A stretch of DNA of 64,000 nucleotides from NCBI GenBank assembly GCA_022561055.1, contig JADFRY010000001.1, positions 57,025 to 121,024 on the forward strand, in the 5' to 3' direction. Positions 1,458 to 62,699 of the stretch are shown here, in pieces. Made by a program: the position numbers and the translations under genes. The DNA comes from Nanobdellota archaeon (GTDB taxonomy: Archaea; Nanobdellota; Nanobdellia; Pacearchaeales; GW2011-AR1). The notes beneath the pieces were generated by a model, which worked only from the letters and a program-made list of their open reading frames with translations, searched no databases and was not told the origin of the DNA. Within the stretch, counting starts at the first letter, position 1. Every line of letters begins with the position of its first letter.

Positions 1458-2104
1458 ACTAACAATAAAGCATACCCTACAAAAATTAAGGTTATTATTG
1501 CAAGAGTTGTCCATAAAATACGAGAGCCGAAGAATATTTGAGTTCCGTCTAGTTTTGAGAGTGGGATAAGATTCCAGAAAGCGTAGTAAGCCGCGAATCT
1601 TGACAATGGAGATATGCCAGGAATCCAGTAAGCTATGAATGAAACTATTAGGACAGCAACAATTCCTGCTGCGCCGACAAGAGCATTATGCCATTCAGTC
1701 ATTTCTGTGAAACTGTAAAAACCATGTCTTTTCGCAGCTCTTCTTTTCAAGACGGTTGTTTCGTAAGTCAAGATAGTCATGACTTTTATAGCGCCAATAG
1801 AAAATGCGGTAATGACTAATGGAAGTATAATTCCTAAAGGAATTGGTTTTTCTATATGCCATCCTGGTTTTAGACCAAAGCGAGACCAAAGCAATATTTT
1901 ATGTTCTACTCCTGCATCTAAATGGCTGGCCATTATTCTTTTTCCAAATATATTTGCTGTTATTATAACGAAGGCAAATAACAAAGCCAAACCAATTTTT
2001 ATGATGTTAAAATTAATAATTGAATTAAATCCGACAATGATTGCCAATATAAAAATTGCCAAGATTATATGAAGGATTTCAGATTGTTTCATTTTCGAGT
2101 TCAA
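1454..2104 (-). CDS. polytopic membrane protein, site-2-protease (M50)-like NxxPxxxLDG motif but no HExxH
   Basis: Multiple hydrophobic segments; C-terminal 'NLIPLSKLDGTQIF' resembles S2P LDG motif; HExxH not found. Confidence 0.4.
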   Translation of the reverse strand: MNSKMKQSEILHIILAIFILAIIVGFNSIINFNIIKIGLALLFAFVIITANIFGKRIMASHLDAGVEHKILLWSRFGLKPGWHIEKPIPLGIILPLVITAFSIGAIKVMTILTYETTVLKRRAAKRHGFYSFTEMTEWHNALVGAAGIVAVLIVSFIAYWIPGISPLSRFAAYYAFWNLIPLSKLDGTQIFFGSRILWTTLAIITLIFVGYALLLV

Positions 2105-2158
2105 GAGACTAGAATTATATAAAGATTGTTATGGGTAGAAGTAATGTTTATTAATATG

Positions 2159-2418
2159 TCAAGAATTGCTTTTTGTGTAAACTCCCTACTTTAGTTCCTG
2201 AGAGAATAAAAGCAATTCTTGAGCATGCTCAAGACACCAAGAATTCTGAAAATTGAATTCTTGGATGCGCTCAAGAATCTTTGATTCTTGACGACCAAAC
2301 ACGCCACCTATGTCAAGAATGCTCTAAAGATTTTGCATTCTTGAACACTATCAAGAATCTGAACATGTAAAGATTCTTGAAGCTTTAGTGGGGGGGTTCT
2401 TGACAATTAAAATTAATA
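2159..2418. repeat. array of five hairpins sharing stem TCAAGAAT/ATTCTTGA plus G7 string (intergenic, divergent promoter region)
   Basis: Inverted repeats 2159-2222, 2237-2264, 2271-2291 (TCAAGAATCTTTGATTCTTGA), 2313-2344, 2351-2390; GGGGGGG at 2400-2406 then TTCTTGACAATT. Confidence 0.8.
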
Positions 2419-2534
2419 GTTATAATAGGTTTGGCTATTTGTCAAATAAAACTCATTTTTTCAGGTAACCTCATTTTTCAACATGAGTTTTCGATAAACG
2501 CAAAATATAAATACTGAAAGAGTGATTTTTTAAT

Positions 2535-2834
2535 ATGTTAAGAATAAAGAAGATGAGTGAGGCTGTTGGTAAACATGTTTATACTTCTGATGGTGATTAT
2601 TTTGGCCAAATTGAAGATGTGAATTTATTGGACAATAAAATTGATGGATGGAAAATTAAGCTTTCTGGAGGTTTTATGAATTTGCTTGGAGGTGCGAAAG
2701 GAGTTATCATCCCGCAGCAATTTGTCAGAGCTATTGGAGATATTTTTATTGTGAATAAAGCTTCTTTACCTTTGAGAGATGAAGCGGTTGATTTGGCTGC
2801 ACCAGAGCCCTCTGAAGGTTTTGAAACTAGTTAA
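2535..2834 (+). CDS. PRC-barrel domain protein
   Basis: 99 aa, 'VYTSDGDYFGQIEDVNLLDNKIDGWKI' typical PRC barrel pattern. Confidence 0.5.
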   Translation: MLRIKKMSEAVGKHVYTSDGDYFGQIEDVNLLDNKIDGWKIKLSGGFMNLLGGAKGVIIPQQFVRAIGDIFIVNKASLPLRDEAVDLAAPEPSEGFETS

Positions 2835-2877
2835 AGCTCAGGTTTGAGTTATTAGCAAACTTTAAATAGATTATTGA

Positions 2878-3489
2878 TTGTTTTTGATTATGGCTTTAAA
2901 TGTATTAAATGTTTTTAGTGGGTTAGTGAGTTCAGTGACAGATTTGCCAATTAGGTTTATGCAAGCTGGTCCTGTTGCAGATGGAACGATTTTATCGAGT
3001 CCAATTGTTATTAATGTAATTTTACCATTTCTTTTAGTATTTACTGTCATATTTGCTCTTTTGCAAAAATCTAATATTTTAGGTGAGGGAAGAAGACAAA
3101 TCGATGCTATCGTTTCTTTAGTTATAGCATTAATTGTTGTTTCTTTTGGTTACGCTACTGGTATTATAGTTGTATTAATGCCTTTTTTAGCTGTTGCAGT
3201 TGTTATTATCCTTGTATTTTTGATTTTATATGCAATGGTTTTTCAGGGTGAGGAGTTTAAATTACATAAAGGAGTAAAAATAACTTTAGTTGTTCTTATT
3301 GCGGCTGCAGTTGTTATAGCTGTTTTGGTTTCTACAGGAGCTTGGGATTATATAGAATATGAATTCTTTTATGGCTCTGATAGTTCTGCTATTGTTACTA
3401 ATGTTATCTTTTTGATTATCATTGCTATTGCAGTTATTGCTGTGGTTGTTCCAGGAAAAAGGCGTACTACACCTTCTGAGTCTAAGTAG
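2878..3489 (+). CDS. integral membrane protein (paralog of 4160..4744)
   Basis: N-terminus LPIRFMQAGP..ILPFLLVFTVIFALL aligns with LPVWFMQSYS..ILPFLLIFAVIFGVL of 4160..4744; 5-6 TM segments. Confidence 0.5.
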   Translation: MFLIMALNVLNVFSGLVSSVTDLPIRFMQAGPVADGTILSSPIVINVILPFLLVFTVIFALLQKSNILGEGRRQIDAIVSLVIALIVVSFGYATGIIVVLMPFLAVAVVIILVFLILYAMVFQGEEFKLHKGVKITLVVLIAAAVVIAVLVSTGAWDYIEYEFFYGSDSSAIVTNVIFLIIIAIAVIAVVVPGKRRTTPSESK

Positions 3490-16255: not shown

Positions 16256-16839
16256 GAACTAAAAAAGGACAAATTGGGCAAATTATAACAAGTTTACCAG
16301 TTATAATTTTAGTATTTATTTTAATGCTTGTTTTTGTTATTGTTTCTGCAGCTGTTTTCGGAGTTAAAGGAGATACGGTAAAATCTGAACCTTCTTTGTC
16401 GAGTAGTTTGTTGTTAAAAGAAATTGAGATCGATGGAGAAAATATTTTTGTTTTTGATGCGATTAAGAATTTTGGGGTAATCTATTCTAAAGAAGGAGTT
16501 GAAAAAAAGGATATTTTTGAGAAAGAGCTGATGAAACTTGTTGATGAAAATAAAGATTGTCTCGTTCTGTTTAAGACTGATAAAAGAAAAGATATTTTGA
16601 GTGCGTTAAGAAAAGAGAACTTTTATTCTACGAGTCTTTTTATCATGGAATATATTGATGAAGAGGCAGTGCGTTCTTCTATTTTATCTTGGACTGACGC
16701 AGAGGATAAACTTAGATATCTCGGAAACAAATTTGGTTGGCCAGGTTCATTTAACGAAGTTTCTTATGTAAAAGATGAAAAACGTTTTTTTATTTATTCA
16801 TACTATGGAAGGTGTAAGAATGGAGCTACGAATGAATAA
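16252..16839 (+). CDS. pilin-like protein (class III signal peptide)
   Basis: MRTKKGQ|IGQIITSLPVIILVFILMLVFVIV; ATGA overlap. Confidence 0.6.
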   Translation: MRTKKGQIGQIITSLPVIILVFILMLVFVIVSAAVFGVKGDTVKSEPSLSSSLLLKEIEIDGENIFVFDAIKNFGVIYSKEGVEKKDIFEKELMKLVDENKDCLVLFKTDKRKDILSALRKENFYSTSLFIMEYIDEEAVRSSILSWTDAEDKLRYLGNKFGWPGSFNEVSYVKDEKRFFIYSYYGRCKNGATNE

Positions 16840-17299
16840 AAGAGGCCATATACCGACAATAATGCTTTTTTTTGGAGCTTTGATTTTGGTAATTGTAACT
16901 TTGTTTTCTTTTACTAACGTGAAAAATGAATTAGGAGGAGAGTCAGAGGATTTTAATATTTTAGTTCAGGAGATTGACTTCAAGAAGAAATATATTTCTG
17001 CTGTTTTTGAAAAGATAGTTGAGGAAGCAGTCGAGAGTACAGATAAATTAAAATTTGAGGAAAGTTTTAGTGTGACTTTTGAAAAAATAAGTGATAGAAG
17101 GGATCCGAAGGATGGCAGTTTTGGTAATTTTTTTGGCAGAATAAGAAACGAGAAATATACTATAAATAAGGAAAATGGGATTTATACTTTAACTATAGAA
17201 GATGTTTTTGTTAGCTCTAATGTCGAAAAGAATGAAATGAAAAGAACTTTTCCTCTGTCAATTAGATTTAATAAAGAAGGACTGATACAGAGGAATTGA
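16832..17299 (+). CDS. pilin-like protein (class III signal peptide)
   Basis: Start moved to MNKRGH|IPTIMLFFGALILVIVTLF. Confidence 0.5.
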   Translation: MNKRGHIPTIMLFFGALILVIVTLFSFTNVKNELGGESEDFNILVQEIDFKKKYISAVFEKIVEEAVESTDKLKFEESFSVTFEKISDRRDPKDGSFGNFFGRIRNEKYTINKENGIYTLTIEDVFVSSNVEKNEMKRTFPLSIRFNKEGLIQRN

Positions 17300-17333
17300 T
17301 TTTTGGTTGTTATCAATTCTCTGTCCTTCAACT

Positions 17334-17392
17334 TCAAGAATGCTGACAATTGCATTCTTGACAGCCGTCAAGAATCTTTGATTCTTGAGGGG
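17334..17392. repeat. two TCAAGAAT-stem hairpins followed by GGGG-TCCAAACAAACACGC
   Basis: TCAAGAATGC-TGACAATT-GCATTCTTGA (17334-17361) and TCAAGAATCTTTGATTCTTGA (17368-17388, identical to 2271-2291). Confidence 0.8.
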
Positions 17393-17459
17393 TCCAAACA
17401 AACACGCAAGAACTTTGAGGTTTCATAAGATTTATAAATAAGGGGAGTTTGTTTAGTAT

Positions 17460-19378: not shown

Positions 19379-19990
19379 TTAAGGTATTTTTCTTTTTAGT
19401 TTTATTATTTTGGATTTTTCGGTTTTATTTTTTTTAATTTTGATAATTTCTAGTTTTTTCTCTTCTTTTAATTTTTGTAATACTTCTTTTAATTCTTGCT
19501 CATTTGCTTCGTGTCTTGGGGAATTTATGTTAAGAGGTTCGTCGTAAACAGGAATTATATTTATTATTACCTCGTTGAATTTGGATTCTGTTTGGATTTC
19601 TGTGTTTTTTGCTTTTAGTTTTGATATTATTTTTTTAGAAATTTGTTTTGCTAATGTGAAAGCTTGCTCTGGAATTTGGTTTGTGTTTTTGGCTGGTTTT
19701 TTTGGAATAATTATTGTGTGACCTTTTGATATTGGTCTTATATCGAGAACAGCAATTGCGTCGTTATTTTCGTCAATTTTTTTTGAAGGTATATTCCCTT
19801 TTATAATTAGTCTGAAGACTTTTGCATTCTGCATTTGTTTTTGCTGTTGTTTCAACATTAGTTCTAATGCTTCCGCAGACATCGAATCTATTTGTTTTTC
19901 GGCTTGTTGACGTTGTTCTAGAGGAAGATGTTGGATTTGCTCAGAAAGCTGTTTTTTTAGTTCTTCGATTTGGGTGGGTGTGAGTGGCAT
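19379..19990 (-). CDS. HIT-like domain protein with N-terminal coiled-coil/Gln-rich region
   Basis: 'DAIAVLDIRPISKGHTIIIPKK' matches HIT fold substrate region; histidine triad itself degenerate. Confidence 0.35.
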   Translation of the reverse strand: MPLTPTQIEELKKQLSEQIQHLPLEQRQQAEKQIDSMSAEALELMLKQQQKQMQNAKVFRLIIKGNIPSKKIDENNDAIAVLDIRPISKGHTIIIPKKPAKNTNQIPEQAFTLAKQISKKIISKLKAKNTEIQTESKFNEVIINIIPVYDEPLNINSPRHEANEQELKEVLQKLKEEKKLEIIKIKKNKTEKSKIIKLKRKIP

Positions 19991-20059
19991 TTTTAACCAA
20001 AAGCTTTCTTCCCATTTGTATTCGTTATCATTTTTAAAATACTCTCATCCAAAACTATA

Positions 20060-20140
20060 ACTTTGGAAAACCTCAAGAACTTTTAGTTCTTGGGGCCCAG
20101 AAAACTGATAAGTTTTCTGGGTTTGTAGGAGTCAAACCTA
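20060..20140. repeat. twin-hairpin element, copy 1 (paralog of 58343-58425)
   Basis: CTCAAGAAC-TTTTA-GTTCTTGGGG (20074-20092) and CCCAGAAAACT-GATA-AGTTTTCTGGG (20096-20121) then GGAGTCAAACC. Confidence 0.75.
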
Positions 20141-20413
20141 ACCAAAAGCCCTCCGATAATCTTCTATTTTTACAGATGAGACATTTTCTAGTTGATTCAG
20201 TTTTGATTCTATAATATCTGTGGATTTTTCTTCCGGCCAAGCCATTTTTAGCATTATCGCTTTAAGGCCGAAGGCAATTTCTTTTTCTTCGAAAGAAATA
20301 TTTTTTGCCCCTTGTTCTTCCATAGATTGTTTTGCTTTTTGCTCAATTTGTTTGAGATTCGTGTCTGGAGAAGAGGGCATTATTTTTACTATTACTGCTG
20401 CTATTCCCGGCAT
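20138..20413 (-). CDS. ef1b: translation elongation factor aEF-1 beta
   Basis: 91 aa; 'KIMPSSPDTNL..' and 'EEKEIAFGLKAIMLKMAWPE' match aEF-1beta family. Confidence 0.8.
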   Translation of the reverse strand: MPGIAAVIVKIMPSSPDTNLKQIEQKAKQSMEEQGAKNISFEEKEIAFGLKAIMLKMAWPEEKSTDIIESKLNQLENVSSVKIEDYRRAFG

Positions 20414-22957: not shown

Positions 22958-23082
22958 TGTCCCCACGGAGAATTGAACTCCGGTCTTAACCTATTCGCGA
23001 GTTCACTTCTTATGGTAGAGTTCATTACTAAAATGAGCTCCCTCACCGCAAGGTTATGTTCTATCCACTAAACTATGGGGAC
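22958..23082 (-). tRNA. tRNA-Arg (anticodon GCG) with ~53-nt intron at 37/38
   Basis: GTCCCCATAGTTTAGTGGATAGAACA-TAACC-TTGCGG..[intron]..A-GGTTA-AGAC-CGGAGTTCAATTCTCCG-TGGGGAC-A; acceptor and T arm canonical. Confidence 0.75.
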
Positions 23083-34875: not shown

Positions 34876-35508
34876 TTATTTGTCGTTTTCGTTAGGAGTT
34901 GGATTGTATATAGATTCTAATCTAGCTTTTCTTTTATCTATTAGCTCTTGTCTCGTAGTTTCAGTTTGATCGGTTAATTCTGATAGGCCTGATTCTGTTA
35001 TTCTGTCGAATGGAACATATTCGCTTGTTGGTGTTTGAATATAAGGATGTTTTGTGCCGTCGCTTCTTTCGACTAAGACTCCTCTGTCGTTAGGGGTTTC
35101 GAATGGAATTAATCGAGTTTCTCTTCCACTATGATATCCAATTGTAATGCCGAAAATTATTGTTCCATAGACAGCTAATCCTGAAACAGCTCCGATCATA
35201 GGATTACGAGGACGTAGATGATGAGCACCACCAGCACCAGCAACAATAGCATTACCAACACCAACAGCACCAACAGCAGCAGCAGCACCAACAATAGCAG
35301 CACCAACAATAGCACCAGTACCAGCACCAGTACCAGCAACAGCACCAGCAGCATAAACAACAATAACACCAACAGCAGCACCAACAGCACCAACAGCACC
35401 AACAGCAGCACCAACAGCAGCAGTACCAGCAGCAACCTTAAGACCACCCTCCATATCATGTTTGTTAGTAGTGTCTTGAATTTCTTGGTCTGTTTTTTCT
35501 TCTGGCAT
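34876..35508 (-). CDS. Ala/Val/Gly-repeat membrane-like protein with unique N- and C-terminal segments
   Basis: ~115 aa of AGV repeats encoded by CAC/CAG/CAA-rich microsatellite, flanked by non-repetitive sequence. Confidence 0.4.
   Translation of the reverse strand: MPEEKTDQEIQDTTNKHDMEGGLKVAAGTAAVGAAVGAVGAVGAAVGVIVVYAAGAVAGTGAGTGAIVGAAIVGAAAAVGAVGVGNAIVAGAGGAHHLRPRNPMIGAVSGLAVYGTIIFGITIGYHSGRETRLIPFETPNDRGVLVERSDGTKHPYIQTPTSEYVPFDRITESGLSELTDQTETTRQELIDKRKARLESIYNPTPNENDK
35215..35450. repeat. imperfect trinucleotide microsatellite (CAC CAG CAA CAG ...) inside CDS
   Basis: accagcaccagcaacaatagc..caccaacagcagcaccaacagcagcag tract visible in sequence. Confidence 0.8.
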
Positions 35509-40349: not shown

Positions 40350-40449
40350 AGCCTGCAGAGGGAGTTGAACCCCCGACCTACTGCTCTCTTTTGAAGCTGA
40401 ATTTTGCTTTCAGTACAAGGCAGCCGCTCTACCACTGAGCTATGCAGGC
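40350..40449 (-). tRNA. tRNA-Thr (anticodon TGT) with 28-nt intron
   Basis: GCCTGCA-TA-GCTC-AGTGGTA-GAGC-G-GCTGC-CTTGTA[intron CTGAAAGCAAAATTCAGCTTCAAAAGAG]A-GCAGT..GGGGG-TTCAACT-CCCTC-TGCAGGC-T. Confidence 0.75.
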
Positions 40450-41714: not shown

Positions 41715-43736
41715 ATGAATAAACAAGCAAAGAATGCGTTGTTGGGTGTTTTGATATTTGGAGTAACTTTATCTATTTTATTTTTGATGAGTTTTGTTTT
41801 AGCTGATTTTGCTAGTTGGTCAGCTGTTGCAGACGAAGGAAATATTACAACATTTAATGAAGATACACCTACTCTTTTAAACTTCACTGTAAATAATACA
41901 GGCACAGCCCACAATATTACATCGGTTAATATTACTCTTCCCACTAGTAGTTTGTCATTCAGCGATGGTTTTTTAATGAATCTTATTGCAACAGGTAATG
42001 TGCATTTAATAGTTAACACTTCATTTGATGTTTCAACTGCAAGTGCAAATTGGTCAAATAATACTAATGAGGGTTTTGGGGACCTTATTCCAAATTTAAC
42101 AAGTGCGGAATTCCAAATTAATATTTCTGGCACAGCTCCGGGTAAATATAATATTAGCGTTAAGATAACAGATGATGCTGGCGCCCAAACAGAGCGTAAT
42201 TTAACTATTCATGTAAATGACACAACTACACCATATTCAGTTACTTTTATGCCAACAAGTCCTGCTCAAACTGCAAATCTTTCAGTGAGAGAGGTTACAA
42301 TTAATGTTTCAGCGAATGATACGCACAGCGGGATTGGATCATTTAATATATCTTTATATCTTACAAATGAAAGTTCTACTGCTAATGGTGCAGCAAATTC
42401 AAGCATAATACATTCTGGAGGAGCTTTAAATGATACAGGGTATGTAAATTTCTCTGGGTCTCATTTAGTAGATGGGTTTTATATAATTAATATAACGAGT
42501 ATCAATGATAATCCTGATCTTATAAATTTAGGAACCAATAACACAAATTCTACAGGAGTTCAAAGGAATATAACTATAGATGCGACTCCTCCAACTACTG
42601 TTATTTTTAACTCTGACACAGATTCTGGAAATTTCTCAAAAAGAGAAGTTATAATTAATGCTTCTGCTAATGCAACTTACACAGGTATAGATACATTCAA
42701 CATATCCTTATACCTAACTAATGGAAGCAGTGTTGCAAATACAAGCATGGTAGAAGCTAATCATGCTCTTAACGCTTCAGGATATGTGAACTTCTCGGGA
42801 AGCCATTTAGTAGATGGGTTTTATTTGATAAATGTAACAGGAATTAATGATACTGCAAATAATGTTAATGTAACAGGAGTTCAACTAAATATCACAATAG
42901 ATACAGTAGCCCCATCAATTACTTTAGCTAAATCAAGCAGTTCTGATAAAAATAAACTAGTTATAGATATTGCAATAACTGATTCAACTAGCGGGGTTAA
43001 TGGAATAGCCTGTACTGCAACTGGAGGAGGCACAGGAAACATAGCTATTGGAGGGGGTTCTGACACCAGCCAGACAGCTACTCAAGAAGGGTTAAGCTGT
43101 AGTAGTTCTAATGTTTATACGATAAAATGTAAAGACCACGCTGGAAATACAGGAAGCAAAGAAGGAACATTTAGTACGGATAGTTGCAGTGGTGGTGGAA
43201 GTCCTGGCGGTAGCGGACCTGGCCCTGGAGGCTCTGAGTGGATAACTACTTTTATTGAAGATGATGAACCACTTGAGACAAGAGGAAGTATTACTAAAGA
43301 ATTAGCTGAAAGACATAGAGTTAAGATTAATGTGGTTGGAGTAGTACATTATATAGGTATTATAGCCGATGGATTAACTGGAACTAGTGCAACAATACAA
43401 GTTTCATCTAGTCATGAGCAAGAATCAACATTAAATATTGGAGAAACAGCAAAGGTTGATGTAAGTGATCCTATTGATAACGTGTATGACTTAAGTATTA
43501 CATTAAACTCAATTGAGAGTAATAAAGCATCTGTTACTGTTTTACCACTACAAGAATCATATCAAGCAGGAGAGCCATCGATAACACCATCTCCGCCAGA
43601 GGAGGAAGAAGAGATTGTTCCTGGAGAATTAGCTGGAGCAGCTAGAAGCTTGGCTTGGCTATGGATCTTAATCGTAGTTATTGGGATAGTAGTTGTAGTT
43701 TGGGTTGTTGTTAGAAAGAGGCAAAAAGCTGGATAA
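41715..43736 (+). CDS. surface (S-layer-like) glycoprotein paralog 1: signal peptide, N-x-S/T-rich, C-terminal TM anchor
   Basis: Signal MNKQAKNALLGVLIFGVTLSILFLMSFVLA; >40 NxS/T sequons; C-terminal 'LAWLWILIVVIGIVVVVWVVVRKRQ'. Confidence 0.6.
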   Translation: MNKQAKNALLGVLIFGVTLSILFLMSFVLADFASWSAVADEGNITTFNEDTPTLLNFTVNNTGTAHNITSVNITLPTSSLSFSDGFLMNLIATGNVHLIVNTSFDVSTASANWSNNTNEGFGDLIPNLTSAEFQINISGTAPGKYNISVKITDDAGAQTERNLTIHVNDTTTPYSVTFMPTSPAQTANLSVREVTINVSANDTHSGIGSFNISLYLTNESSTANGAANSSIIHSGGALNDTGYVNFSGSHLVDGFYIINITSINDNPDLINLGTNNTNSTGVQRNITIDATPPTTVIFNSDTDSGNFSKREVIINASANATYTGIDTFNISLYLTNGSSVANTSMVEANHALNASGYVNFSGSHLVDGFYLINVTGINDTANNVNVTGVQLNITIDTVAPSITLAKSSSSDKNKLVIDIAITDSTSGVNGIACTATGGGTGNIAIGGGSDTSQTATQEGLSCSSSNVYTIKCKDHAGNTGSKEGTFSTDSCSGGGSPGGSGPGPGGSEWITTFIEDDEPLETRGSITKELAERHRVKINVVGVVHYIGIIADGLTGTSATIQVSSSHEQESTLNIGETAKVDVSDPIDNVYDLSITLNSIESNKASVTVLPLQESYQAGEPSITPSPPEEEEEIVPGELAGAARSLAWLWILIVVIGIVVVVWVVVRKRQKAG

Positions 43737-43939
43737 GAGTTTTATTAATATATTAAAATACCAATAGATAAATTGGATTTGGAACAACAAGAATCAAAAA
43801 CTTTTTGGAAATATAAAGATTGTATTGCTGCATAATGGAGTAAAGAAAGATTTATAAATAAAAGATTTCTAATTACTATTATAAACATTAGGAATAAAAG
43901 AGGATCAAACGATTGATGATACATACAAAAAAATTAGTG

Positions 43940-45649
43940 ATGAATAAACAAGCAAAGAATGCGTTGTTGGGTGTTTTGATATTTGGAGTAACTTTATCTA
44001 TTTTATTTTTGATGAGTTTTGTTTTAGCTGTTCATCAAGTTTCCTTTGAGGATTGGAGAGCAGATGTAGATATTTCCGCTTTCGGCATAGATGAAGATAC
44101 TTATGTAGTGATTAATGTAACAGTTAATGATACGGACACTGGCTCTTTGGCCAACATAACGCAGGTAAACATCACTTTCCCTGCCGGGTTTATAATCGCT
44201 TCAACTTTTGACCTTAATTCAAATAATACTGATGCCGTAGCTGTAAATACTAAGACAGTTGGAATTAGTTTCACTAATACAACTCTTGGTGGAAGGTTTG
44301 TCTTTAGTTGGGAGAACCTTACTGGAGGAGTAATACAGAATTCAACTAGCTTAACTCACTTTTTGTTTAACGTGACCTCTGCTAAACCTGGCAAGTTTAA
44401 CATTACTGTTAGAACACTGAATTTCTCGACTTTCATAGAGACTAACCTTACTATTGTAATCAATGATACAACTATTCCAGCTAACAAAACATTTGAAAGT
44501 GCTCGTTCGTTTGGTGCAGGCTCTAACAATTCTCTAAATCACATATCTATTAACCTTAGTGTTGGAGATAATGCTTTTGCAGATACTGTGAGGTTCTTCT
44601 TGTGGAACTCTACTAATGATGTTATAAATCAAACTAATATTACTGTTGATGGGAGAGGAAGATTTGCTTGGATTAACATTTCCACAGTATCAGACAACAG
44701 TTCTCAAGGTATTAGTGACGGCACTTATAGAATAAATGCAACTGCAAACGACACTACCGGAAATGACAATGTAACTAGTGTGAACGGCGTTTCTAGAACA
44801 ATAATTATAGATACAGTAGCCCCAGAAATTACTTTAACTAAATCAAGCAGTTCTGATAAGAATAAACTAGTTATAGATATTGCAATAACTGATTCAACTA
44901 GCGGGGTTAATGGAATAGCCTGTACTGCAACTGGAGGAGGCACAGGAAACATAGCTATTGGAGGGGGTTCTGACACCAGCCAGACAGCTACTCAAGAAGG
45001 GTTAAGCTGTAGTAGTTCTAATGTTTATACGATAAAATGTAAAGACCACGCTGGAAATACAGGAAGCAAAGAAGGAACATTTAGTACGGATAGTTGCAGT
45101 GGTGGTGGAAGTCCTGGCGGTAGCGGACCTGGCCCTGGAGGCTCTCAGTGGATAACTACTTTTATTGAAGATGATGAACCACTTGAGACAAGAGGAAGTA
45201 TTACTAAAGAATTAGCTGAAAGACATAGAGTTAAGATTAATGTGGTTGGAGTAGTACATTATGTAGGTATTCTAGCTGATGGATTAACTGGAACTAGTGT
45301 AACAATACAAGTTTCATCTAGTCACGAGCAAGAATCAACATTAAATATTGGAGAAACAGCAAAGGTTGATGTAAGTGATCCTATTGATAACGTATATGAC
45401 TTAAGTGTTACATTAAACTCAATTGAGAGTAATAAAGCATCTATTACTATTTTACCAATACAAGAATCATATACTCTTGAAGAGGAAGAAGCAGCACCAG
45501 AAGAGGTGGAAGAAGGACCTCCTGCCCTTGGTCCTGAAGAATTAGCTGCTGCACCTAGAAGCTTGGCTTGGCTATGGATATTAATCGTAGTTATTGGGAT
45601 AGTAGTTGTAGTTTGGGTTGTTGTTAGAAAGAGGCAAGTAGCTAAATAA
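43940..45649 (+). CDS. surface glycoprotein paralog 2 (identical signal peptide and near-identical C-terminal 290 aa to paralog 1)
   Basis: Start moved to ATG 43940 (MNKQAKN..); C-terminal block from TVAP.ITL.KSSSSDKNKLVIDIAITD onward ~95% identical. Confidence 0.6.
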   Translation: MNKQAKNALLGVLIFGVTLSILFLMSFVLAVHQVSFEDWRADVDISAFGIDEDTYVVINVTVNDTDTGSLANITQVNITFPAGFIIASTFDLNSNNTDAVAVNTKTVGISFTNTTLGGRFVFSWENLTGGVIQNSTSLTHFLFNVTSAKPGKFNITVRTLNFSTFIETNLTIVINDTTIPANKTFESARSFGAGSNNSLNHISINLSVGDNAFADTVRFFLWNSTNDVINQTNITVDGRGRFAWINISTVSDNSSQGISDGTYRINATANDTTGNDNVTSVNGVSRTIIIDTVAPEITLTKSSSSDKNKLVIDIAITDSTSGVNGIACTATGGGTGNIAIGGGSDTSQTATQEGLSCSSSNVYTIKCKDHAGNTGSKEGTFSTDSCSGGGSPGGSGPGPGGSQWITTFIEDDEPLETRGSITKELAERHRVKINVVGVVHYVGILADGLTGTSVTIQVSSSHEQESTLNIGETAKVDVSDPIDNVYDLSVTLNSIESNKASITILPIQESYTLEEEEAAPEEVEEGPPALGPEELAAAPRSLAWLWILIVVIGIVVVVWVVVRKRQVAK

Positions 45650-45740
45650 GATATGCGCTAGATAAGTTTGTTATTTGGTTTAAAAAGTTATTGTTAGTAG
45701 TTATGTAAATTATTAAATAGTATGGGATGTTTTTTTCTTT

Positions 45741-57972: not shown

Positions 57973-58332
57973 TTATTCTATCAAAACAGCATTCACGCAA
58001 CCTTCTCTCGAAGGGCGGTTTGTTATTGTTGCTTTGCCCATGGAAGTTTCAATTAGAACTCCCTTTATTAATCTATTTTGTCTGGCAAGGAATTTATTCT
58101 GGGGGGTTTCAAGAACTTTTTTTATTTCAGCTTTTTTCATGCCTTCAGAGGCAGCCACATTTACGATATTTGTGCTGAGTAAGATTGTTTTTTTTGTTCC
58201 CCCTTTAACTCTGATTGTTTTTCTTTTTAGTTCACCGAGTACGACTATCTTTTCTTGACTGGTTTTTTCATAAAACTTTTTCTTTCTATTTGCGTGATAT
58301 TTTCCGCCAGTAATTTTTCTTCCTTTATTCAT
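57973..58332 (-). CDS. rps8e: ribosomal protein S8e
   Basis: 'MNKGRKITGGK' and C-terminal 'GCVNAVLIE'; listed ORF uses upstream TTG at 58356. Confidence 0.7.
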   Translation of the reverse strand: MNKGRKITGGKYHANRKKKFYEKTSQEKIVVLGELKRKTIRVKGGTKKTILLSTNIVNVAASEGMKKAEIKKVLETPQNKFLARQNRLIKGVLIETSMGKATITNRPSREGCVNAVLIE

Positions 58333-58342
58333 TTTACAACCT

Positions 58343-58425
58343 TTCAAAAACCTCAAGAATTTTTAATTCTTGGGGCCCAGAAAACTTATTAGTTTTCTAG
58401 GGGTTCTAGGAGTCCAAACGGATCC
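58343..58425. repeat. twin-hairpin element, copy 2 (paralog of 20060-20140), immediately upstream of rps8e
   Basis: CTCAAGAAT-TTTTA-ATTCTTGGGG and CCCAGAAAACT-TATT-AGTTTTCTAGGGG then GGAGTCCAAAC. Confidence 0.75.
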
Positions 58426-58547
58426 TTTACCTTTACAATCTTTCAAAAATTTGGTTTATATAGTTTTTGTTTTAATAAAATCTTTGTTAAGTTTGCATAA
58501 CAACAATCTACAACAATGTTTAAATACTCTAAATCTAAAAAGCACAT

Positions 58548-62600: not shown

Positions 62601-62699
62601 GCTCCCGTAGCTCAGTCTGGATAGAGCAACAGACTTCTAATATTGTGCTTTGTAAAGGGAGAAATCTGTGGGTCGCAGGTTCAAATCCTGTCGGGGGCA
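62601..62699 (+). tRNA. tRNA-Arg (anticodon TCT) with ~25-nt intron
   Basis: GCTCCCG-TA-GCTC-AGTCTGGATA-GAGC-A-ACAGA-CTTCTA[intron]A-TCTGT..GCAGG-TTCAAAT-CCTGT-CGGGGGC-A. Confidence 0.75.

Follow-up and report, generated by a model that had tools for sequence, protein, structure and literature searches.

A twin-hairpin element in a DPANN archaeon is probably the core of a modular, non-autonomous palindromic repeat

A short element composed of two adjacent hairpins occurs twice in the 64,000-nt stretch of Nanobdellota DNA analyzed here (the window). We suggest that this twin hairpin is probably the core of a non-coding, non-autonomous selfish palindromic repeat of Nanoarchaeota (DPANN), and not a gene with a dedicated function for the host. 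In relatives, the sites of both window copies are empty, and in the window a direct duplication of the target flanks each copy; the element itself is modular, its twin-hairpin core being joined to a tail that comes from a dispersed hairpin module. The empty sites and duplications, the reuse of the module, and the nesting and clustering of units argue for a modular, non-autonomous selfish repeat, as do the occurrence of the module in in-frame protein loops, its colonization of intron bodies and its orientation along the G-rich strand. The original prediction had offered a small non-coding RNA, a terminator-like or processing element and a miniature repeat element as options; the evidence supports the last, in that further copies exist and the hairpins are kept by compensatory changes.

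Sequence and fold of the two copies

The element was located in the window as it had been described, and so was a second, similar copy (Table 1). A repeat search of the window (family D8) gave 89% identity between the copies across 61 nt, and a MAFFT alignment gave 82% identity over 120 aligned columns. The 18-mer at the junction in the core, CTTGGGGCCCAGAAAACT, occurs exactly 2 times in the window, compared with 0.09 occurrences expected. Both copies consist of two directly adjacent hairpins in ~80 bases, with an 11-bp stem each: CCUCAAGAAYU/ARUUCUUGGGG in hairpin 1, whose U.G pair forms on the + strand only, and CCCAGAAAACU/AGUUUUCUGGG in hairpin 2. Stems of 7 and 11 bp had been predicted. 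The second length was correct, the stem being perfect in copy 1 and interrupted by one bulged A in copy 2, whereas the first stem proved longer, with 8 perfect pairs (CAAGAACT/AGTTCTTG) or 11 bp with one + strand U.G pair counted.

When folded, both copies are far more stable than shuffled sequences. The minimum free energies of the + strand are -35.5 (copy 1) and -30.4 kcal/mol (copy 2), with z-scores of -5.0 and -4.0, and 0 of 200 shuffles were equally stable. The - strand folds nearly as well (z = -4.8 and -3.6). The differences between the copies had been placed in the loops or, as compensatory changes, in the stems. This holds for 2 loop changes in hairpin 2 and for a single genuinely compensatory change in stem 1 (C-G to U-A), but there are also 1 bulge insertion and several changes in the tail. 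Compensation in the stems therefore comes down to one pair when just the two window copies are compared.

When the whole window was searched with Rfam 15 at gathering thresholds, only tRNAs were returned and no family was found at either copy; E-value scans of both loci yielded no match with E < 1 and none that approached a gathering score. ARAGORN detected no tRNA and no tmRNA at the two loci. A reading of GGTTTGACTCC on the - strand as a tRNA or split tRNA was likewise without support from ARAGORN or Rfam and was rejected.

Table 1. Positions of the two twin-hairpin copies, their insertion sites and related hairpins in the window
Feature	Position	Strand	Description
Copy 1, element as originally described	20068-20137	+	sequence located in window
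Copy 1, hairpin 1	20071-20095	+	CCTCAAGAACT / AGTTCTTGGGG, 11 bp including one U.G, loop TTT
Copy 1, hairpin 2	20096-20121	+	CCCAGAAAACT / AGTTTTCTGGG, 11 bp, loop GATA
Copy 1, tail TTTGTAGGAGTCAAACC	20122-20138	+	equivalent to 3' half of widespread hairpin module
Copy 1, inserted segment	20005-20138	+	134 nt between two 11-bp target repeats
Copy 1, extra 5' part	20005-20054	+	TATA-like TTTTTAAAATA at about 20032-20042
Copy 1, arm-like CTATAAC	20055-20061	+	precedes twin hairpin and tail
Copy 1, target-site duplication TAACCAAAAGC, HIT-proximal	19994-20004		retains ancestral ef1b-end/HIT-start junction GCTTTTGGTTAA-AA-ATG (GGTTAA-AA-ATG)
Copy 1, target-site duplication, ef1b-proximal	20139-20149		last ef1b codons
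Copy 2, element	58348-58420	+	second copy in window
Copy 2, hairpin 1	58351-58375	+	part of the 72-nt inserted segment
Copy 2, hairpin 2	58376-58402	+	one bulged A
Copy 2, tail GTTCTAGGAGTCCAAACGGA	58403-58422	+	its 16-mer identical to module copies in other genomes
Copy 2, inserted segment	58351-58422	+	72 nt, between direct repeats of about 27-30 nt
Copy 2, direct repeat, S8e-proximal	58321-58350		native S8e 5' UTR, start codon and first codons; working leader
Copy 2, direct repeat, promoter-proximal	58423-58449		decayed duplicate of ancestral S8e leader, ATG lost
Conserved S8e promoter TTTGGTTTATATAG	about 58452-58465		adjoins promoter-proximal repeat
Type A twin hairpin, sibling	17334-17405	+	covariance model 30 bits; repeat family D11
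Cluster of five consecutive hairpins	2159-2380	+	includes type A unit 2237-2305

Both copies are insertions

Copy 1 is located between ef1b (20138-20413, - strand) and a HIT gene (19379-19990, - strand). This gene context is as originally claimed, the flanking genes carrying EF1_GNE and HIT domains, both on the - strand. In three relatives (L191, L192 and L193), whose EF-1-beta proteins are 84, 81 and 74% identical to that of the window, the distance from the ef1b stop to the HIT start is 1, 0 and 30 nt, compared with 147 nt in the window, and the junction reads ..GCTTTYGGTTAA(A)ATG... The repeats that flank copy 1 match at 11/11 positions, a score reached by 0 of 1000 shuffles. At present, the ef1b stop codon is TAG (20138-20140). 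Since ef1b and HIT abut in the relatives, the element broke an operon junction and is foreign to the operon, and the suggestion of a processing element inside an operon was wrong as to origin. The insertion would have split or uncoupled the formerly abutting pair, left ef1b followed by two hairpins and TTTT on the - strand, and brought a TATA-like box to ~45 nt before HIT. A possible origin of the extra 49 nt of copy 1 as a carried-along piece of S8e 5' coding sequence was rejected, as the alignment was no better than those of shuffles (176/1000).

Copy 2 is located between the S8e gene (start 58332, - strand) and an Sm gene (58548, + strand). The score of its flanking repeats was reached by 1 of 500 shuffles. 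As read from the alignment, the S8e 5' UTR is homologous to those of L010 and L009. In the relative L010, the Sm-S8e spacer is just 84 nt, the element is absent and the promoter lies directly ahead of the start. The S8e and EF-1-beta proteins of the window have 100% identical counterparts that NCBI assigns to a "Nanoarchaeota archaeon" MAG, and the second-best S8e match is only 77% identical to the window S8e. Insertion of copy 2 would have moved the S8e promoter ~120 nt away from the start codon, and S8e would then be read through a leader of ~100 nt with two stable hairpins, or from a new start site.

Terminal inverted repeats are absent from the ends of both inserted segments (TTTCTTCCC.. 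/ ..GAGTCAAACC for 20005-20138 and CCTCAAGAAT.. / ..CCAAACGGA for 58351-58422), and the unequal duplications (11 vs 27-30 bp) are a poor fit to a classical cut-and-paste enzyme.

Related hairpins elsewhere in the window

The further copies and relatives that had been anticipated were found both in the window and in other contigs. The hairpin stem CAAGAA..TTCTTG has 7 occurrences in the window, compared with 0.18 expected. A sibling of the twin hairpin, which we call type A, is built of TCAAGAATGC..GCATTCTTGA, a linker CAGCCG, TCAAGAATC ttt GATTCTTGA and the tail GGGGTCCAAACAAACACGC. It sits in a lineage-specific insertion of ~145 nt (about 17275-17421), the spacers of relatives being 31 nt. 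This insertion carries three hairpins and has taken the place of the final codons of the gene upstream (16775-17299), whose protein now terminates in inserted DNA. The ancestral gene end ATTTCATAAGCTTTATAAATA persists 3' of the insertion as a remnant (17422-17441), in which TTTCATAAGATTTATAAATA represents the ancestral stop and promoter. Here, flanking repeats were not observed.

A second type A unit (2237-2305) is 85% identical to that at 17334-17405 and has the same tail, ..CCAAACA(AA)CACGC (family D11). It belongs to the cluster of five hairpins (Table 1), which is situated in a divergent 430-nt spacer. All hairpins of this cluster share the closing sequences TCAAGAAT/ATTCTTGA and differ in their inner stems, which are nevertheless complementary; in one of them, a 15-bp stem encloses a 34-nt loop. 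Rfam gave no match in the cluster. A replication origin at this position was also considered and rejected, as the cumulative GC skew is monotonic across the window.

Copies in the source genome were counted over the window plus about 17 kb of flanks. A scan of a collection with one genome per species, in which the source species is absent, gave 5 hits to the 18-mer core with dissimilar flanks, which are chance matches. A degenerate hairpin-1 pattern had 52 hits in viral contigs, all in unrelated coding regions of phage families. Other repeated sequence in the window comprises a tandem repeat within an ORF, with periods of 9-15 nt (35178-35470), and two neighboring paralogous genes that have stretches of 92-100% identity in common (41715-45651).

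Twin hairpins in other contigs and covariation

The training set of the covariance model consisted of the two window copies and two sequences found by a regular expression (L072 722-770 and L120 731-780). As had been anticipated, the model detected members beyond this set, and these have compensatory changes. A match in L128 (7442-7492; 48 bits, E about 6e-9) has other stem sequences, and L072 3318-3369, L125 2882-2929 and window 17366-17421 were also found. In an alignment of 8 members, 89% of cells are paired, both sides have changed in 8/20 pairs, and the covariation score is 0.38 compared with 0.19 in shuffles (0/500 shuffles reach 0.38), values that lean towards structure because the alignment was fitted to the model. 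Covariation is convincing only once homologs from other genomes join the two window copies. As judged by eye, the wobble of hairpin 1 is a T.G pair of the + strand, and that of hairpin 2 in L072 and L120 is a G.U pair of the - strand, reading C.A on the + strand. Wobble pairs therefore favor neither strand consistently.

The twin hairpin of L072 is a 47-nt insertion inside an Rfam hit to RT-16 RNA (699-957, - strand; 63 bits vs a gathering score of 50). RT-16 is a motif class that occurs near reverse-transcriptase genes (PMC5737381). In the same 4-kb contig, a tRNA-Lys with a module-bearing intron adjoins an ORF (1917-3317, - strand) that, judged by eye from its translation, is tyrosine-recombinase-like, and the contig may be an integrated element. 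Another hairpin, CCGATGCAGARCATCRGGGTATTGA, is conserved beside the twin hairpins of L120 (about 790-825) and L125 (about 2835-2865), on opposite sides in these unrelated contigs, and may be part of an unrecognized structured RNA.

The outer module is dispersed among genomes

The window copies carry the tail TTSTAGGAGTC(C)AAAC, which represents the 3' half of a hairpin module of 35-45 nt. Based on relatives and the flanking contig, the unit is CTACAAC-YTTT-loop-AAAR-GTTCTAG-GAGTC(C)AAA, with the form CTACAACCTTT-loop-AAAGGTTCTAGGAGTCCAAA. Copy 2 and the module have the exact 16-mer GTTCTAGGAGTCCAAA in common, and metagenome contigs scanned with this exact 16-mer gave at least 120 matching loci. 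Among the matches listed, ~38 loci are genuine, having the full unit including the 5' arm CTACAACCTTT, which was not selected for. These full-unit loci have 30-42% G+C, and conservation among module copies does not extend to the bases 5' of CTAC. A picture in which both window copies are a module with a twin hairpin in its loop was weakened, since the left arm of copy 2 is native S8e leader; it is fully valid only for copy 1. The very high conservation of the module across genomes could alternatively point to a sequence-specific function, for example as a protein or RNA binding site.

Among the matches listed, 13 module sites form the body of introns in tRNA genes, beside the anticodon; the tRNAs include Ser, Thr, Lys, Leu, Asp, His and others. 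Forward modules start at, or a few nt from, the predicted 5' splice site, and reverse modules abut the 3' splice site with their CTACAAC end. Proper hBHBh' motifs were present in 3/3 module-bearing introns examined (L135, L140 and L183), and the anticodon complement of the BHB comes from the tRNA-specific 3' part of the intron, not from the module. A tRNA-Val gene is followed directly by four tandem 39-nt modules (L122 2683-2840, with the same sequence in L124). Each of these units ends with ..GGAGTCCAAAGAACTAC, and CTAC is the end of one and the start of the next. Module copies also occur immediately after stop codons and before start codons.

Three intron-containing tRNAs in the window (22958-23082, - strand; 40350-40449, - strand; 62601-62699, + strand) were found only by the Rfam model and were missed by default ARAGORN; their introns are without the module. 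The tRNA at 62601 has a 23-nt intron. Its apparent counterpart in L182, identified by visual comparison of the anticodon loops and called tRNA-Ser by ARAGORN, contains a module-bearing intron of 48 nt. Just past the right end of the window, a plain module (L065 5571-5604, - strand) fills the 34-nt intergenic gap from the stop of an ASCH-domain gene to the start of an aminoacyl-tRNA synthetase gene, and its AGGAG, 7 nt upstream of the ATG, resembles a ribosome-binding site.

In-frame modules were found in Kae1/TsaD, a GatC-like protein, the linker of an E2 acyltransferase and one further protein, all in the same frame, encoding ..TTF.KGSRSP... The GatC-like protein is 85-87 aa long with the module (L086, L097, L105 and L112) and 77 aa without it (L187 and L189). 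For three filled GatC proteins the nearest relative is empty, with 92, 75 and 84% identity outside the insert, whereas filled proteins are only 60-68% identical to each other. Thus, there has been repeated gain or repeated precise loss at one site, and either way this indicates mobility. At the DNA level, ~35 nt of nearly invariant module replace ~11 nt, and no target duplication was detected at the GatC site.

Orientation follows the G-rich strand

The forward strand of the module is the G-rich strand by GC skew in 26/27 loci of at least 2 kb, and by GC3 skew in 29/31 loci (p about 5e-7, with some loci being duplicates). On the module strand, co-oriented ORFs have a skew of +0.30 and anti-oriented ORFs one of -0.03, so that about +0.14 can be assigned to a replication-type component once the effect of the coding strand is subtracted. 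It should be noted that 69% of ORF bases are co-oriented with the module, so the orientation bias is partly confounded with gene orientation. All family members of the window, and one further member just outside it (L065), are on the G-rich strand, independent of the direction of neighboring genes. The window has 34% G+C, and the skew of its + strand is +0.33 in + genes, +0.05 in - genes and +0.16 outside ORFs; it is positive in every 4-kb bin (+0.05 to +0.38), including the regions of - genes. The monotonic cumulative skew indicates that neither an origin nor a terminus is present in the window.

A possible mode of spread

If the twin hairpin is the core of a selfish repeat, its modules would be copied to new sites at the DNA level or via a nucleic-acid intermediate, and a trans-acting activity would perform the copying. 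The hairpins would be required by this process or be its product, which would explain the compensatory upkeep of the stems without a consistent RNA strand. The process might be strand-specific and replication-coupled, acting on hairpin-forming DNA, and modules would persist where the harm is small, such as in spacers, UTRs, intron bodies and protein loops. For the family, no link to a transposase, recombinase or reverse transcriptase emerged, and no transposase domain was present among the Pfam-annotated genes of the loci that cover the window.

Alternative explanations

Each of four alternatives explains fewer observations than the selfish-repeat reading. The copies might be paralogous genes for a structured small RNA, trans-acting or protein-binding and transcribed from the + strand. 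The two-hairpin fold is stable, the hairpins are maintained by compensatory change across genomes, the U.G pair of stem 1 is functional on the + strand only, and, as far as the sequence can be read, a TATA-like TTTTTAAAATA lies ~25-35 nt upstream of copy 1 on the + strand; the L072 twin hairpin is also located just 3' of a TATA-like box and 5' of tRNA-Lys. However, an Rfam match is absent, the upstream sequences of the copies have no convincing common promoter, and the contexts are mixed (antisense to flanking genes, within another RNA, and in spacers). Compensation had originally been taken as a sign of a selected RNA, but the sites of relatives are empty and the copies are lineage-specific insertions flanked by target duplications. 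The wobbles favor no strand, with hairpin 2 of L072 and L120 wobbling, by eye, on the opposite one, the orientation tracks the G-rich strand and not the flanking genes, and the related outer module also occurs in-frame within protein genes. We consider a small RNA gene unlikely.

A cis-acting RNA element on the - strand, possibly co-opted after insertion, appears somewhat more doubtful. It would serve as a 3'-end, terminator or stabilizer hairpin of ef1b and as a leader or attenuator of S8e. On this strand, copy 1 begins at the ef1b stop and ends with hairpin 1 and TTTT(CC), copy 2 ends with hairpin 1 and TTTTT, 16 nt ahead of the S8e start, and the fold is good, as given above. Bacterial REP-type repeats can act as terminator, stabilizer or leader elements. 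Yet a terminator scan, which looked for a G+C-rich hairpin immediately ahead of a T-run on the transcribed strand, gave 0 sites at both copies, the T-runs after hairpin 1 (TTTT in copy 1, TTTTT in copy 2), which were seen by eye, falling short of its criterion, and this speaks against the intrinsic-terminator-like option of the original prediction as well. In addition, a C.A mismatch occurs in stem 1 on the - strand, efficient termination at copy 2 would block expression of S8e, no logic is common to the 3'-end and 5'-leader contexts, and the relatives manage without the element.

Spread via an RNA intermediate and a reverse transcriptase, in a SINE-like, target-primed manner, would give duplications of variable length, such as the 11 and 27-30 bp observed, and one homologous twin hairpin lies within the RT-16 hit. 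But neither the window nor L072 showed a reverse-transcriptase gene, the elements are without an A-rich 3' tail, their orientation tracks replication-type skew and not transcription, and the lone RT-16 association could be an accident of insertion, which makes this route very unlikely.

Finally, excision of the window copies as intron-like elements by the archaeal splicing endonuclease is very improbable: although the related module is the body of canonical BHB tRNA introns, with its splice-site positions at the 5' (forward) or 3' (reverse) edge, and archaeal endonucleases process mRNAs and rRNAs too (PMC4090602), a BHB search that recovers the tRNA-intron motifs gave only weak, G.U-rich candidates at the window copies, none of them a bracketing hBHBh' motif, the tRNA BHB is built by the tRNA-specific 3' intron segment, and the module keeps the reading frame in protein genes, as if translated.

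Comparison with known repeats

The nearest analogues of the selfish repeat proposed here are REP/BIME repeats, Rickettsia palindromic elements (RPE) and MITE/PATE elements, and it matches none of them in full. RPE are short palindromic repeats that occur in intergenic DNA, in RNA genes and in-frame in protein genes; the conserved peptide that they add to the proteins is located in loops that tolerate it (PMC10969869). The outer module is similar in adding ..TTF.KGSRSP.. to Kae1, GatC-like and E2 proteins. Such in-frame insertion into unrelated genes is seen for the outer module in other genomes, but not for the window copies, which are intergenic. Further differences are the archaeal host, the unit of 35-45 nt compared with about 100-150 bp in RPE, and the role of the module as the body of tRNA introns.

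REP/BIME are bacterial repeats mobilized by RAYT transposases. Our elements resemble them as imperfect palindromes of 20-40 nt in spacers, forming clustered hairpin mosaics (window 2159-2380), and as extragenic palindromes they recur in the twin hairpins at 17334, 20071 and 58351. Stems are maintained while the inner sequence varies, and by analogy an incidental stabilization or termination of transcripts would be possible. However, no RAYT or Y1 transposase gene is present in the annotated loci, the window insertions have target duplications, and their orientation is uniform with respect to the G-rich strand, not alternating. To our knowledge, single-strand HUH transposition makes no target duplications.

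Like MITEs, the elements are small, multicopy, structured and non-autonomous, show presence/absence polymorphism between relatives, and are dispersed with both filled and empty sites. Unlike MITEs, the window units have neither terminal inverted repeats nor a duplication of fixed length (11 vs about 27-30 bp), and no partner IS was found for either a MITE or a PATE relationship. PATEs are derivatives of IS200/IS605 elements described in archaea that have subterminal hairpins and are oriented according to the replication strand. Orientation of this kind is also found here (26/27 and 29/31 loci, and all window members), and the strand bias makes an IS200/IS605-type mechanism attractive. We know of no IS200/IS605 element that produces a target duplication, and PATEs insert without duplication 3' of a fixed tetra- or pentanucleotide, whereas here duplications are present and the bases 5' of CTAC are variable. 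The target duplications contradict this mechanism, and it was rejected.

Within archaea, a review (PMC4090602) that covers Fujishima et al. 2010 describes near-identical BHB introns in different tRNA isoacceptors of Thermoproteales and takes them to imply DNA-level spread by an unknown mechanism. The module is similar in recurring in tRNA introns of many isoacceptors, but it is not confined to tRNAs, being present in protein genes, spacers and trailers as well, and it belongs to a DPANN lineage. Its presence outside tRNAs suggests a general mobile module that colonizes pre-existing introns, and not movement of the introns themselves.

Significance

In a limited collection of the literature, no DPANN palindromic repeat or conserved intron module was described. 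It is possible, although we propose it only tentatively, that the window elements represent an undescribed class of mobile hairpin modules, oriented by the replication strand, which enter the same sites repeatedly, in spacers, in protein loops and at the 5' edge of BHB tRNA introns.

For annotation, we recommend labeling the element as a repeat or insertion and not as a small RNA gene, and its insertion accounts for the difference of the ef1b-HIT and S8e promoter regions from those of relatives. One module of 35-45 nt, strongly oriented and recurrently gained at one site, is common to tRNA introns, coding insertions and intergenic repeats of DPANN archaea. It provides a testable handle on how archaeal tRNA introns gain and exchange sequence, and it bears on the tolerance of selfish DNA in very small genomes. 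If the elements do form an undescribed mobile class, whose movement would depend on an enzyme or on template switching at forks, this class would supply the vehicle long sought for "tRNA intron transposition" and intron growth in archaea.
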